Shown here: one piece after another, positions 22,401 to 59,023 of the stretch | Position numbering within the stretch: the stretch's first letter is position 1 | How the letters are laid out: the number at the start of each line of letters is the position of its first letter | IMG/VR virus record: IMGVR_UViG_3300042987_001724 | DNA from: a virus | Lineage: Duplodnaviria; Heunggongvirae; Uroviricota; Caudoviricetes | Length of the DNA: 64,000 nt | Strand: one strand, 5' to 3' | Program-made: the position numbers and the translations under genes | The notes under the pieces: generated by a model | What the model saw: only the letters and a program-made list of their open reading frames with translations | Database searches by the model: none | Told to the model about the DNA's origin: nothing

Positions 22401-25192
22401 AGGGATTCAAGATCGAGAAAGTTGACGACACTCGACAGTACGAAGAGATTGATGATGACAAGTGGGAGCCAATCGCGGGAAGCGGTCGAGATCACGCATG
22501 CGACCGTTGCGGCAAGAATCACGTCATTCACTACCATGTCAAATGCCGTGCCACCGGGAAGGATCTGAATGTCGGCAGCGAGTGCGCTGGAGCTACCGGA
22601 ATTGACGACAAGAGCAAGCACAAAACATTCCAGTCCGCAGCTAGCACCGTGAAAAAACTGGAATCCATGCGAGACGGAATCAAGGCGAAGCTCGACAAGA
22701 TCCCAGCGATGCAAGCAAAAGTCTCGGAAATGGAATTCCCAGAATGGGCCGTTCAGCCATCGAGTCTTTTCAAGAAAAAACAGGGGGATCATCCACGCTT
22801 CGAATTGACGCTTGGCGACCTAAAGCAACAACTCCCGGATTCATACCACGGATGGACACAGTACAGCCCGCATATGGCAGCACAGGCATTGAGCGAAGCA
22901 AAGTCGTACCTACGTCGCGAATGGGAGTCGAATAGAATTGGTGAACTGGTCGCCGACGCTGGGATGTACGATCCGTCAAAGCACGGCAGATCGTATGGAG
23001 CATATCTCCCTAGAAAGCTGAAGGACGATCTTGAGAGCGTGGAAAACCGCCTGAAGAAAGCGAAAAAGAAACTTGAGTCACTGACTGAGCCTGAAGAGTT
23101 TTCTCGACTGCTCGACATCACGCCGGTCGAATTCGGGCGAAAGCCAGCCGCCGGACAAAAAGGATTCGACTTCGACGCCCCGGTTACGGAACCGATCGCC
23201 GACAAGGAAGCAGAGAACGAACCGACAAAGCAATCCAGTCTGTTCGCAGACATCCCCGCAGAGCACCTCGACGAAGCGAAAAAGCTGTCGGAACTGCACG
23301 GCGGACGGGAAGTCAAGAAGACGAAAACGGGCTGGCAGGTAAGATCACCCAAGGGCGGCAAGGTTTCCGAAGTCAACGGAATCCACTATCCGGGCGGTCA
23401 GTTCATGCCGATCCACGGGCTGACTGAGAAGAAAGCCGTTCATCCACCAAAAGCCGATCGACCGAAGTTCCCGGAATCATCGCCGCAGGAGAAGAAGGAA
23501 AAGACGGACGGCGGATGGTCTGGTGGACAGCGATCCCCGATGACTCTGGATGAGATTGAAGAACTCCGGAAACGACGGGAAGAAGAAAAGACATGGGCAG
23601 ATATTCAGCGTTCGCCGCTTGGTCGATTGCTCGACTTGGGGGACAAGCCGAAATATAAACAGGGTACGATTCCGTTCACCGATCAATGGCGGGAATACGC
23701 CGAACGTGTCGGCCCCGTCGCGATGGCGGAGATGAGGGACCAATTTGAAAAAGAAGTTCACGGAAAGATAGACAAGGAATGGCAAGACGCCATTAACGAA
23801 CAGTCTAGCATGACCGACGACCAGATCATGCGACGCCACGGACTCAGTAGCGTCGGGAGATTCTCGCCAGAGGATGCAGAATGGGACAAGAATCAACTGA
23901 AAGAATCGGCTGAGAGTTCCGCCACGCAATGGAAGCCAAGAGCAGGAAGGGCCATCGAAAAGAGCGTTCCCGGAACCCACTACGTCCGCGAATTGATCGG
24001 CCATATCCTATCGACCGACAACGGTATTCCGATCGGAGAGATGAAGCGAATCGGCGACATTCTAGCATCGCACGAATCCGCGTCCCGAGCAGACATGGCC
24101 GATCCAGTCGAAGCCAAGAAAAACGGCTACTACCCTAACAAATTCTCCGGCACCACGGCCAGTGGAAAGAAAGTCAAAGCTGGCGACGGCTGGGTCAAGA
24201 AAAACCAACAGACCGGGAAGTACGAAACCTACACCGACGACGAGGTGAAGTCGGCAATCCAGCAATTCAGTCGGGATCTCGAAATCTGCCTGCAAGAGTT
24301 CAGCAACAAGGACCGGGAGAAAACCGAGATCTCGCTGGTTGACAAGACGGAAGAGTTCAGCCGACTCCCAATTCTCACTGCGGAGGAATTCGAGTTCGCG
24401 AGACGTCCATACAAGCCCGGCGAAGGCCAAGGGGAGTTCCCGTTTCAGGATCGCCCGGATCAGATCGACTCCCCATTGGGAGAGGAACCTGTCCAGTCGT
24501 CCAATATGCACAGCTTTCGATGGGAAGGGAACGATACGACGGGAAGCCTTTTGGTTCGATTCAAGGCCAAGAACGGAGGGCCGGGGCCGCTCTATCGTGT
24601 TTCTGTCCCGAAGTCGTATTACGAAGGGCTGAAGAAAACGGCACAGACGAACGGCAGCGCCGGGGGCTGGTACTGGGATAACATCCGAGTTCGAGGCTCC
24701 GTGGCTGGCCACCAACACCCGGTTTCACTCGTCGGCACCGGACCAACGGGATATGTCCCTCGCGCCGCAGGGTTGCGTCGCGGATACACTGGTGAGCATT
24801 TCAACGAGAGAACATTGAATGGGGTCAAGAGTACGCTCACGCCTGCACCAGTCAGAAAAGGCCCAGCGAAGAGGATTCCCGGTTACGACCCAAGCAAGCT
24901 GAAACTACCCGGAGAATCCCAAGGCCAGCCAAGTCAGCCACAGGTGACGACGCAATCGCAGACATCTTCAAGTCCAAGTCCGGCACCTGCGCCAACCCAA
25001 ACTCCGGCAACACCGCAGACGCCGAGCCAGTCCCCGCAAACGCCACCTAATACCCCGCCGAACACCACGAAGGGATTGATCGACAGGGTGCTTGATTTCT
25101 TTAAGCGGAAGCGGAAGAAGCCCGGAGATGGTCCGAAGCAGTTCAGCCGAGAGGAATGGGAGGATGTGATGCTGATTCTGTCTGGAGTTTGA
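16493..25192 (+). CDS. giant polyvalent protein 2 (2899 aa)
   Basis: In order: linker box EAHEGKRPGEFAPK; GNAT-like (VNPSHRGQGVYSSVLAEL); PSELEKI box; ParB-like (GKLLTSSRRRTLAAREAGVAKIPAW). Then a full module (PVEFARVRPARNQSAFNWDEDAHPREATVHDGKRPGEFAAK) and a PARP/ART-like domain (AFKAWFGDW..VYHGTNAG..GPGIYFTETEQ..ITHTGG..EPNQIKAV). Then a module (PVEFARIKPAPGQMSLFDEGNVNRETEAHEGKRPGEFAPK) and a kinase-like domain (GTHIGKGHESTAFDAGNGMIVKAAV..LDHNRNAAIYDIGSA). Then partial modules (AAGQGSFNWDADEHPRDE; EEFSRLLDITPVEFGRKPAAGQKGFDFD), a Zn-ribbon (CDRCGKNH..C) and a PT-rich linker. C-terminal GPKQFSREEWEDVMLILSGV. Confidence 0.9.
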   Translation: MSLESDLQTVLGSFVEVSTPIPFSRTAAPGQKRLWNEADVSRESEAHEGKRPGEFAPKPHEGTVDIGNGVSLKTHPPKTHVIRPGNQYDTHYWEAIKNGETIGSGRYANYGTATQPLEVSVNPSHRGQGVYSSVLAELNRRATVIPNDLSVSTEAKRAWNRFRKQTGEQPQFPEAMTPQEKKSKTPAGQNLLFDSGVSDQPVAKPAPQPSELEKIDDEQKKSKIAPVEGQKELFEGGLEPVHHHVAKRFGIPPHAVKSLMESGVPELRRRDEWLAESNGASPQTGFETFPHGTARINQFGDPNESYVDYMTEFSPHDIEPTEPEDGIKKSQTYKDYVQWAKAGHQPPPVSVFSSNNGNGKLLTSSRRRTLAAREAGVAKIPAWHGPYNPETGNPLKYGDVMKAVNEFHSQQFSRTLNEVTPIEFSVAAPPRKRRVIDDKRTREDVDEDEKVFGKKKRIPTDGNKPETGWTKVGGSTVHVNDDGVIDKGCPGLKGEEVEDLIDESDESRERREARQAYARAAGITGDQITAEQAKAMGSDAHVEGMKQAKAVAEADPRPTIGTSDVLRGVDDQTGELAGNGHELLQSNNREHPESNEQFEGTGMPSPMKFMDDEDEGTRPQWMGPKLSEMVPIPPRPKFLRDREPLDHDAAAQYQPQIDKLEADIAKWRDARDAMKKGRDVGQFGLSPEQKTPEYADAQIKALQGPLGKLKRQLSDYRMRSTPNQNPATQTWTSLDSAAEGASSKFGIPIHHIVEAMPDAYLFRLAQSIEHESLKKAARKKLQMHAGDLARIENQHSDWSDVPRFDEASREFASENPGAGLDPYAHDTPDKVWSLIREGATSMPAKDSPEIAELAAQMISGDYNRKPLEFTSEDDHDDHGDDFSDDWGGEHGDTSFDPNSFSRWILNAGPVEFARVRPARNQSAFNWDEDAHPREATVHDGKRPGEFAAKQGVAAPQEIDHESDYKQNGTRSKAFKAWFGDWEHDPANASKVVDADGEPQETSPIDGTGSKVMRDGKPVGVYHGTNAGPFGKFEKRWGKATAGGNSENLLYGPGIYFTETEQLAKEYSSIKSFAFNGDIERLKSETEQQIRHMETHDYGGSHVQLEKSLKQLESMTPERVANPTESNDRVAISVLKNWLPVHVVDSFWEDQSQPHVFNCFLNIRKPLDADKGIPDDILGRLDEGTLEQLKTPLQDAAKRIQDAEKYISQGRAMIKLMGEQFNSPHTDEKTKAELQQSKTEYLHSINGKNQMIDFLKRQIERGISYAAVAEQVGGKTRLNEILAEAGYDGITHTGGRIMGKVEHRVWIAFEPNQIKAVNNRGTFNPEDDRLEFSRSDELDTIAERMGVDADSLRAAIASMPGPKSESLTWIRKLMHDPSRGVLRDRNGHVIGFLTRNGQKIQLRDARGHQSGTVTGSSFRDSKGHVTGTLQEFSQQLQDIEPVEFARIKPAPGQMSLFDEGNVNRETEAHEGKRPGEFAPKTEPAATPAPVAQKPRKIGKREFKAAPSTTVDFPQTNSFGPIPGVKMKHIDGTTFFTNPKDDTHVLAKVPTHHVERFMDEISGRISHPANSGHPTLDRVLSGHGTHIGKGHESTAFDAGNGMIVKAAVLTPFHISQHGVRTPAEANKIVDDSVAVTNHLRAAGVPGILPQYGIQHDGRSFAVQKKVDTQSPLKTHHFDQLEKTIQGIHNAGYAVKDQIQAGLDHNRNAAIYDIGSAAKLEGGRYDDDDKRQDFNNLAYLAKKHGVDYKTPEQRRAPNDYDSMLWHIQDHPGMTRDEARTAKLRLVGAASRTKAVDPDMHELLSDTHADAMQKLEGWINQPKVEMSRTPAAGQGSFNWDADEHPRDEIGRFKDKLHHQIKEYLSDGSHRHIRDIHDHTGHKDYDALDPLSNKANAALKELRDSGHISGTTPSIGEPQFYMTEEQIAKHKNPESDSNVTKRQDESDESDVKTDGASGKATERQESTDSGKLGSQGFKIEKVDDTRQYEEIDDDKWEPIAGSGRDHACDRCGKNHVIHYHVKCRATGKDLNVGSECAGATGIDDKSKHKTFQSAASTVKKLESMRDGIKAKLDKIPAMQAKVSEMEFPEWAVQPSSLFKKKQGDHPRFELTLGDLKQQLPDSYHGWTQYSPHMAAQALSEAKSYLRREWESNRIGELVADAGMYDPSKHGRSYGAYLPRKLKDDLESVENRLKKAKKKLESLTEPEEFSRLLDITPVEFGRKPAAGQKGFDFDAPVTEPIADKEAENEPTKQSSLFADIPAEHLDEAKKLSELHGGREVKKTKTGWQVRSPKGGKVSEVNGIHYPGGQFMPIHGLTEKKAVHPPKADRPKFPESSPQEKKEKTDGGWSGGQRSPMTLDEIEELRKRREEEKTWADIQRSPLGRLLDLGDKPKYKQGTIPFTDQWREYAERVGPVAMAEMRDQFEKEVHGKIDKEWQDAINEQSSMTDDQIMRRHGLSSVGRFSPEDAEWDKNQLKESAESSATQWKPRAGRAIEKSVPGTHYVRELIGHILSTDNGIPIGEMKRIGDILASHESASRADMADPVEAKKNGYYPNKFSGTTASGKKVKAGDGWVKKNQQTGKYETYTDDEVKSAIQQFSRDLEICLQEFSNKDREKTEISLVDKTEEFSRLPILTAEEFEFARRPYKPGEGQGEFPFQDRPDQIDSPLGEEPVQSSNMHSFRWEGNDTTGSLLVRFKAKNGGPGPLYRVSVPKSYYEGLKKTAQTNGSAGGWYWDNIRVRGSVAGHQHPVSLVGTGPTGYVPRAAGLRRGYTGEHFNERTLNGVKSTLTPAPVRKGPAKRIPGYDPSKLKLPGESQGQPSQPQVTTQSQTSSSPSPAPAPTQTPATPQTPSQSPQTPPNTPPNTTKGLIDRVLDFFKRKRKKPGDGPKQFSREEWEDVMLILSGV
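19262..19340 (+). repeat. about 78-nt direct repeat, copy A (encodes FNWDEDAHPREATVHDGKRPGEFAAK)
   Basis: About 90% nucleotide identity to 31241..31318 (ttcaattgggatgaggat..cacccccgagaggc.actgtacacgacggaaaacgaccggg.gagtt). A weaker copy lies at ~28841..28920. Confidence 0.8.

Positions 25193-59023: not shown

Follow-up and report, generated by a model that had tools for sequence, protein, structure and literature searches.

The 64,000-nucleotide (nt) stretch of IMG/VR record IMGVR_UViG_3300042987_001724 (Caudoviricetes), here called the window, encodes five large proteins, P1 and G1-G4 (the giants), and a 464-amino-acid (aa) scaffold-like protein, all of which carry a short motif, (E/Q)-F-(S/A)-R with its variants. 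We put at roughly 60% the probability that the phage's own capsid-maturation protease recognises its substrates at this motif and that the giants are polyprotein precursors loaded into the procapsid. The basis for this reading is the enrichment and placement of the motif, the predicted fold and the invariant His/Ser/His residues of the 464-aa protein's N-terminal domain, the conservation of the sites in orthologues, and the equivalence of the tail of one giant plus the head of the next to an internal junction. From these lines of evidence, all of them drawn from sequence and predicted structure, we infer that the giants are encapsidated and cut, which enzyme does so, and at which bond.

Enrichment and placement of the motif

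P1, G1-G4 and the scaffold-like protein (7,928 aa) contain the strict motif [EQ]F[SA]R 21 times, compared with 0.29 times on average and at most 3 times after shuffling, and it is found once in the remaining 65 open reading frames (ORFs; 11,600 aa, 0.49 expected), namely at aa 13 of the large terminase (EEFARS, 50279-50290). Six-frame translation gave 28 strict matches, all but three of them in the frames of these six proteins. In an unbiased scan no tripeptide was more over-represented than FSR, either in the giants (14 vs 0.93, p=2e-12) or, separately, in the scaffold-like protein (4 vs 0.05, p=3e-7). Chance or composition as the origin of the motif is ruled out by the shuffles together with this unbiased ranking. 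Moreover, the 21 sites are encoded by 16 distinct 12-mers; the differing codons rule out a repeat or recombination signal at the DNA level and indicate that selection acts on the protein.

The initial annotation had described the motif as a C-terminal signal common to the giants and the scaffold-like protein and removable by one protease. The C-termini that it quoted for G1-G4 are indeed present, each of them consisting of (E/Q)FSR and a hydrophobic stretch, and so is the quoted ending of P1 (...GEEFTYTP...), which nevertheless lies outside the strict motif. The idea of a common protease signal is retained, as the shared motif is best read as the site of one head protease, but its restriction to C-termini is not, since the motif is also found near the N-termini of G1, G3 and G4 (~21 residues in) and at ~15 internal positions between domains, where it is often paired.

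Two classes of sites can be distinguished by what follows them. Ser-type sites, (E/Q)FSR, precede x-L-x-x-(I/V) or a longer hydrophobic stretch and include the C-terminal sites of G1-G4, the first site of each doublet and the sites of the scaffold part. Ala-type sites, (P-V-)EFAR, precede (K/R)-x-P-x-x-G/N-Q-x-x-(L/F)-(F/N/W), often with W-D-E-x-x-H-P-R-E ... H-D-G-K-R-P-G-E-F-A-P-K further on, and include the N-terminal sites of G3 and G4 (G1 has PFSR instead) and the second site of each doublet. Judged from these contexts, Ser-type sites appear to close a unit and Ala-type sites to open one. The doublets stand at internal junctions with their sites 7-13 residues apart, as in EFSR-QLDDIGPV-EFGQ of P1 (14876-14923) and SFSR-WILNAGPV-EFAR of G1 (19187-19234), both of which are followed by the leader module described below, and the site variants include xFSR, EMSR, EFGR and xFST. 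None of the sites falls inside a Pfam-recognised domain. After Ser-type sites the maximum 6-residue hydropathy is 1.30, compared with 0.22 +/- 0.24 at random positions, and 0 of 2000 samples reach this value.

The putative protease-scaffold fusion protein

The gene of the scaffold-like protein (57629-59023, + strand) likely starts at the ATG at 57629, from which its residues are counted here, and the 464-aa protein P0001 is 100% identical to its product. The label given to it earlier fits its C-terminal part, which is scaffold-like, but the protein itself would be the protease: structure prediction suggests that an N-terminal domain of assemblin/prohead-protease fold (aa 1-156, 57629-58096, +) is fused to this scaffold-like part. 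The candidate catalytic residues, all on the + strand, are His57 (57797-57799), Ser117 (57977-57979) and His138 (58040-58042). Capsid maturation proteases of this fold have a conserved catalytic Ser and His and a third residue, which in herpesviruses is His (the triad of human cytomegalovirus is His63, Ser132 and His157). A first full-length AlphaFold2 model was poor (predicted local distance difference test, pLDDT, 51), and fold searches were run with a domain-only model from a deeper alignment (pLDDT 84, predicted template modelling score 0.79). In the Foldseek search of this model against PDB, the best 50 matches are all herpesvirus proteases or gp21, and the matches in BFVD are annotated as prohead or capsid maturation proteases, Mu-I type included. 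With a limit of E<=1e-3, a profile of the domain retrieved at least 2,449 cluster representatives, mostly proteins of 400-500 aa with the domain at the N-terminus, and among 71 diverse family members the three candidate residues, in the order His-Ser-His, are invariant. Profile searches with the domain in Pfam, PHROGs and PDB returned no significant match, while one of the 71 members matches Pfam Mu-like_Pro (E 2e-4).

The QFSR and the three EFS(R/A) sites that the initial annotation had noted in this protein are all present (QFSR at 58901, EFSR at 58793 and 58622, EFSA at 58286), and AFSR/CFST and SMSR were added to them. Just past the protease domain lies the double site AFSR-AM-CFST (aa 162-171, 58112-58141, +). 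It is followed by EFSA in a disordered linker of low pLDDT in the full-length model (58286-58297, +), by SMSR-DGDYEH-EFSR (58592-58633, +), by Y-EFSR-Q in a loop between predicted scaffold helices (58793-58804, +), and finally by QFSR (aa 425-428 of 464) with a conserved 36-aa C-terminal tail, ...DERADQIL... (58901-59020, +). In the full-length model these sites fall in loops or low-confidence segments.

In an alignment of 13 orthologues (to 50% identity) the N-terminal ~150 residues are highly conserved, while the scaffold part is variable, with Pro/Gly/acidic linkers in places and predicted helices. Within this variable part FSR (alignment aa 164-166), FST, (E/Q)FSA, SMSR, YEFSRQ and (E/Q)FSR are invariant between varying flanks; strictly, F and S are invariant in the EFSA site, YEF.RQ in the loop site, and FSR together with R..A..I of the tail (...DERA.(E/Q)I...) at the last site. 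The EFSR of SMSR-DGDYEH-EFSR belongs to an insertion restricted to close relatives, whereas SMSR is family-wide. Across the 71 family members five scaffold positions, those of AFSR, CFST, SMSR, YEFSR and QFSR, keep [L/F/M]-Ser, with Ser in 51, 50, 59 and 63 of the 71 and Ser/Thr in 39 of 71; the 59 refer to the SMSR position, with M or L before the Ser, and the 63 to the YEFSR position. The residue that follows is mostly L/I/M in other members and Arg in this clade.

This layout recalls the herpesvirus assemblin precursor (pUL26/pUL26.5 of herpes simplex virus, pUL80a of human cytomegalovirus), in which protease, linker and scaffold are joined in one chain with release (R) and maturation (M) sites. 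As in herpesviruses, there is a site at the boundary of protease and linker, there are sites in the scaffold linkers, and there is one near the C-terminus (36 residues). By analogy, AFSR/CFST would be the counterpart of the R site, and QFSR with the 36-aa tail that of the M site and its capsid-binding tail, so that a capsid-binding role of the tail may be supposed. Unlike the herpesvirus sites, (V/L/I)-x-A|S, the site is here (E/Q)-F-(S/A)-R ([L/F/M]-S-x in the family), with Ser alone in common. The sites are also far more numerous, giant non-scaffold cargo is among the substrates, and sequence similarity is undetectable.

The giants as putative polyproteins

By their domains the giants appear to belong to the polyvalent proteins as defined by Iyer et al. 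2017 (PMC5512222): ART-PolyVal (E 6e-13), LPD1 (5e-12) and Methyltransf_23 (1e-7) were matched in G1-G4, and a DarA_C match in G4 (1e-5) lies just under the cut-off. All five genes are on the + strand. P1 (641 aa, 14564-16489) is grouped with the giants because it has the same linker module. It carries a QFSR site (14786-14797) in addition to its doublet, and its C-terminus is of acetyltransferase type by eye, with no match from the tools used. P1 was also considered as the portal missing from the window, and this was ruled out, as it has no portal match and does have the linker module and this C-terminus.

G1 (2,899 aa, 16493-25192; ART-PolyVal) starts 3 nt after P1 with an N-terminal head of 21 aa and PFSR (16493-16567). 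In addition to the doublet at 19187 it has the doublets QFSR-TLNEVTPI-EFSV (17723-17770), EFSQ-QLQDIEPV-EFAR, followed by a leader module (20780-20827), and EFSR-LLDITPV-EFGR (23096-23140), a single EFSR (20480-20491), an EMSR variant followed by TPAAGQGSFNWDADEHPRDEIGRF (21953-21964), a cluster of four sites, QFSR, EFSN, EFSR and EFAR (24263-24403), and a C-terminal QFSR with a 13-aa hydrophobic tail, QFSREEWEDVMLILSGV (25139-25189). Computed cutting of G1 at its sites gives fragments of 389, 476, 419, 100, 379, 381, 378 and 249 aa and short spacers, and these fragments are of domain-like size, in support of the proposed processing. The earlier suggestion that the giants are trimmed is thus too weak in the case of G1, which would yield about eight units of 100-480 aa.

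G2 (1,331 aa, 27053-31048; LPD1) has a head with the variant QFST (27104-27115), an EFAR with a leader module (28721-28732), a second EFAR (29387-29398) and a C-terminal EFSR with a 30-aa tail, EFSRSQAIAYFSGNS...RNAS (30944-31045); a zincin motif, HEWAH (aa 1132-1136, 30446-30460), adjoins its LPD1 domain and is kept in G2-like homologues as HEWMH or HEWFH. After a gap of 10 nt comes G3 (1,263 aa, 31059-34850; methyltransferase), with a head of 20 aa and EFAR followed by a leader module (31059-31130) and a tail of QFSR and 9 aa, QFSRDLAFVLSRI (34809-34847). G4 (1,318 aa, 35407-39363; DarA_C-like) has a head of 21 aa and EFAR (35407-35481) and a tail of EFSR and 73 aa (39130-39360).

The sequence that follows EFAR-type sites forms a recurrent leader, (K/R)xPxxGQxx(L/F)(F/N)W-DE-xx-HPRE-...-HDGKRPGEFAPK, which is found in P1 and G1-G3 with identity up to 74% (G1 vs G3). 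Leader modules after Ala-type sites lie at 16568-16660, 19235-19330, 20828-20930, 28733-28960 and 31131-31320. In G4 the leader is limited to the proximal (K/R)xPxxQ part, and a related form, W-x-E-x-x-HPRD-x-x-GRF, is present in G1 (~aa 1835) as well as in P0025 and P0026, which are distant giants. If EFAR is cut, the leader would become the N-terminus of every mature unit, and it could serve as a signal for ejection or for host targeting.

A pentapeptide, Q(L/M)(S/G)LF, was noted four times (G1 aa 1452, G2 aa 566, G3 aa 30 and G4 aa 707). It resembles the bacterial sliding-clamp-binding motif QL(S/D)LF, though it could instead represent no more than a variant of the leader's GQxx(F/L) segment.

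The hydrophobic stretches beyond the sites could also be understood in another way, namely that motif and flank together form a docking peptide which stays uncut and recruits the giants to the procapsid by binding the capsid on its inner surface, or else the scaffold or portal, in the manner of encapsulin cargo-loading peptides or of the coat-binding C-terminus of scaffold proteins. The significantly hydrophobic or amphipathic character of what follows the Ser-type sites would fit such a role, as would the heads and tails kept on separately encoded giants, the gain in avidity from multiple copies, and the position of the last scaffold site beside a conserved C-terminal helix. We nevertheless regard docking without cleavage as unlikely: it offers no reason for a site at the exact end of the protease domain or in every scaffold linker of the family, the doublets of 7-13 aa at domain junctions look like spacer excision, and the scaffold has to exit the capsid, which in protease-bearing phages it does via cutting. 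Docking and cleavage are not mutually exclusive, and by analogy with the capsid-targeting sequence of T4 and the M-site tail of herpesviruses, which combine both, the same stretches may do so here.

Orthologues and gene fusion

The orthologues bear directly on the sites. On the 111,971-nt contig L003 the protease-scaffold protein is ~50% identical and keeps its sites, and the sites are also conserved in the L003 orthologues of the giants, whose pairwise identity over aligned residues is 40-65%. The tails, on whose presence in orthologues the earlier proposal of a shared signal had been made to depend, are found in L003, in P0022, with the C-terminus AAEFSRDLALVLNS, in P0028 and P0029, where a QQFSR...LSSSLRNAS tail is kept behind a different upstream domain, and in P0032, the L003 orthologue of G4 (40% identity over aligned residues), which keeps an EFAR head and KQFSR with a 68-aa tail.

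In L003, G2 and G3 form one protein of 2,192 aa, and their junction reads ...KPQEFSR-SDAIEFFTGEVAGPDRLIRSGDQSGFLDALEFLVEN-EFAR-KPAVGQKSLF, with a 36-aa spacer. This junction equals the tail of G2 plus the head of G3 and has the same form as the internal doublets of G1. Read in this way, the tail of one giant and the head of the next appear equivalent to an internal junction, and once both sites are cut, split and fused genes would yield identical products; the gaps of 3 nt between P1 and G1 and of 10 nt between G2 and G3 fit this equivalence. The view that the tails act as a common targeting signal is not supported: downstream of the motif, the giants resemble neither one another nor the scaffold protein except in hydrophobicity, and the tail of G2 is in L003 a junction spacer.

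Perhaps the tetrapeptide is no more than the conserved edge of a linker module that recombination has duplicated and shuffled among the giants, with no biochemical role. The repetition of the module, with identity of up to 74% between G1 and G3, and the orthologues in which domain cassettes differ while tails stay constant (P0028/29) are what such shuffling would produce. It would not explain why the scaffold protein has the short core only and not the module, why the codons differ from site to site, why the sites stand out as conserved islands in orthologues this divergent, or why the architecture recurs in other lineages with a different motif, and we consider it very improbable.

Other lineages

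L005, a contig with the more distant giant P0026, has no EFSR-type motif; its giant contains R-Y-x-A four times (0.21 expected), doublets included, e.g. ERYAAMFEAAMEHYAARK, and has the head MPAISQEVLRRYAKP (...RRYAKP) and the C-terminal end DRYHALLT. The neighbouring head protein, of 505 aa and encoded just upstream of a cement/decoration-like gene, contains R-Y-x-A five times (0.17 expected), and the other 13 L005 proteins contain it once. In L007, a 564-aa protein matches PHROG 976 (phrog_976), "head maturation protease" (E 2e-9), and contains F-[SA]-E seven times (0.30 expected); the L007 giant, P0024, contains it three times (0.42 expected, P=0.008), and the other 16 L007 proteins once. 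The three lineage motifs do not cross over, each of them not being enriched in the other lineages. These observations hint that the site changes with the lineage.

In L006 (JGI Ga0620607_001349), a subtilisin/kexin-like peptidase (Peptidase_S8 and P_proprotein; 1522-3279) lies between the portal gene and two giants (3359-8596 and 10001-15910), and the giants contain (R/K)(E/K)KG(L/Y/M) four times, once directly ahead of an HPRD motif. In L006, cargo of this kind may be processed by another system.

Proposed maturation pathway and its weight

According to the reading that we favour, P1 and G1-G4 (~7,450 aa) would be precursors of polyvalent effectors that co-assemble with the protease-scaffold protein into the procapsid. 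The protease would be the N-terminal assemblin-fold domain of the 464-aa protein and its C-terminal two thirds the scaffold; the protease would free itself and cut the scaffold into pieces able to exit. In the giants, the ~20-aa amphipathic N-terminal head would be removed at the EFAR-type site preceding (K/R)xPxxGQ, the hydrophobic C-terminal tail at the EFSR-type site, and the spacers of 7-35 aa between units would be excised, so that ~15-20 individual proteins, each of roughly 100-1,200 aa, would be left to be injected. The scissile bond may be aromatic|Ser/Ala, by analogy with A|S of assemblin, and the hydrophobic flanks may either belong to the site that is recognised or act in docking.

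An enzyme other than the head protease could cut the same sites, either the G2 zincin beside LPD1, at work inside the capsid or once injected, or a host protease. The HExxH motif beside LPD1 in G2, which marks the metallopeptidase to which Iyer et al. ascribe self-processing, and the RadC/JAB domain of P0026 provide candidates, and autoproteolytic release of domains is predicted by Iyer et al. 2017 (PMC5512222). Cutting by such an enzyme is, in our judgement, quite improbable: it leaves unexplained the conservation of the motif in the protease-scaffold linkers and its assemblin-like positions, most members of the protease-scaffold family show no sign of such giants, and the L007 giant has no HExxH. 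The Trypsin_2 peptidase of the window (3449-4459) has a signal peptide and should be exported.

Several points weigh against cleavage by the head protease. The protease assignment depends on a predicted fold and invariant residues: matches of the domain to PHROG 'head maturation protease' reach only E 0.04-0.4, and hhalign, phmmer and hmmsearch gave no significant match to Mu gpI. The zincin motif of G2 could mark the processing enzyme. The strict motif also stands in the terminase, which is not an expected substrate, a single occurrence being compatible with chance at 0.49 expected. In the other lineages, no protease family could be found for the 505-aa protein of L005, the giant of L007 has just three copies of its motif, both motifs were chosen after inspection of the sequences, and the exact tripeptides in L005 and L007 are not significant alone. 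Finally, heads and tails kept on separate genes would be odd if they served cleavage only, so that they probably also have a role in docking or recognition.

A broader form of this reading is put forward tentatively and is somewhat less likely than not. In phages of this clade, the injected arsenal of anti-defence and host-takeover effectors would be made in true polyprotein fashion, with ~7,500 aa in five precursors that an assemblin-like protease cuts in the procapsid, at least 30 sites yielding ~20 proteins; each unit would start with the leader KPxxGQxxLF / W-D-E-x-x-H-P-R-E ... G-K-R-P-G-E-F, and site and protease would drift together between lineages (FSR in the window, RYxA in L005, FSE in L007). 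If this is true, the cargo proteome and the mature boundaries of its proteins could be read from sequence alone.

Comparison with known systems and significance

In phages T4, phiKZ and SPN3US, the head proteases gp21, gp175 and gp245 recognise one motif (LxE; S/A/G-x-E) both in scaffold or core proteins and in injected head proteins, from which N-terminal propeptides are removed, often with several sites per propeptide (PMC5694885). The heads of G1, G3 and G4, of 21-24 residues ending in a site, are near the length of the T4 targeting sequence, which is carried by Alt and the internal proteins, and the G4 head is kept in L003. Unlike in these phages, sites are here found also at C-termini and between domains, and the motif differs; the T4 protease, moreover, is not fused to a long scaffold.

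In gene position and in the layout of N-terminal protease and C-terminal scaffold, the fusion protein is like gpI/gpZ of Mu and gpO of P2, and one of its BFVD matches is annotated 'COG4388 Mu-like prophage I protein'. It differs from these systems in having no significant profile match to Mu gpI. To our knowledge, no cargo polyproteins have been described for Mu or P2.

With the polyvalent and Dar proteins the giants share ART-PolyVal, LPD1/zincin, methyltransferase and DarA_C domains, and they are encoded by a phage that has a terminase and a head module. In the account of the phage P1 Dar system given in PMC5512222, DarA and DdrB are processed and packaged, and the processing of polyvalent proteins is ascribed there to their own metallopeptidase domains (Iyer et al. 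2017). Term searches of that paper (PMC5512222) returned no junction motif and no link to a head protease, and a full-text search of the literature returned no paper linking polyvalent proteins to maturation-protease sites. A more distant likeness exists with RNA-virus polyproteins, in which several functional units are translated as one chain and a viral protease frees them by cutting at a short site that recurs. Since the setting here is the procapsid of a double-stranded DNA phage and the units would be accessory effectors rather than replication proteins, we take this as an analogy only.

It is already known from T4, phiKZ/SPN3US and herpesviruses that scaffold and internal or ejected proteins can have a motif in common that is cut by the head protease. 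What is new is the motif itself and the unannotated family of protease-scaffold proteins with an assemblin-like site layout, as well as the sites at both ends of the polyvalent giants and between their domains, which, as far as the sequences indicate, would make the giants polyproteins; the hint of a site changing with lineage is likewise new. Polyvalent proteins are widespread in phages and plasmids, and self-cleavage by their own metallopeptidases is the sole published proposal that we found for their processing. A site shared with the head protease would offer a concrete mechanism, predict exact mature boundaries and make capsid cargo recognisable from sequence. It would also give a function to at least 2,449 cluster representatives lacking a Pfam or PHROG assignment, as protease-scaffold fusions of herpesvirus-like layout. 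Moreover, heads, tails and sites could serve as tags for loading foreign proteins into capsids and releasing them there.

Genomic setting

Copies of the scaffold-like protein, identical or 93% identical, are found on contigs of 115,069 and 118,113 nt, one of which is "uncultured Caudovirales phage UFOVP1229", and the window is part of a phage of ~115 kb. No isolated phage relatives were found by megablast or by tblastn in the phage collection, and a scan of IMG/VR with the capsid protein returned only two close relatives. The phage that carries the giants has a terminase and a lambda-like head module: the large terminase gene (50243-51913) lies upstream of the protease-scaffold gene, a gpD-like decoration protein gene (59075-59893) directly downstream of it, followed by a gpE-like major capsid protein gene (59962-61119). 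The window yielded no portal gene; in L006 and L007 one sits immediately upstream of a giant or a giant cluster. The decoration protein begins with MTYPGFSTS... (59075-59150), similar to the CFST/QFST variants. This start and the terminase EEFARS are probably chance matches, because neither protein is expected inside the procapsid.

Between the terminase and protease-scaffold genes, 5.6 kb (51976-57534) contain only small ORFs on both strands; compared with the two close IMG/VR relatives this region is mosaic, in that some blocks are 79-94% identical and one segment is replaced.

Within the giant array, an ORF on the - strand between G1 and G2 (25207-26190) has weak, sub-threshold HNH and helix-turn-helix matches, and a GIY-YIG/NUMOD3 endonuclease gene (7879-8664, +) lies upstream of the giants; both are probably homing endonuclease genes, the former interrupting the array. 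An ORF of ~165 aa between G3 and G4 (34895-35395, +) has no family match and has a counterpart at 7943-8440 of L003.

The Trypsin_2 peptidase mentioned above (+ strand, E 5e-16) is preceded by a 268-aa ORF of no assignment (2632-3438, +). It was set aside as a head protease, as it has a clear N-terminal signal peptide and is remote from the head module; export of this peptidase is likely, and it probably plays no part in head maturation. Upstream of P1, a PhoH-like ATPase gene (12226-12972, +; E 3e-55) represents a frequent auxiliary gene of aquatic phages.

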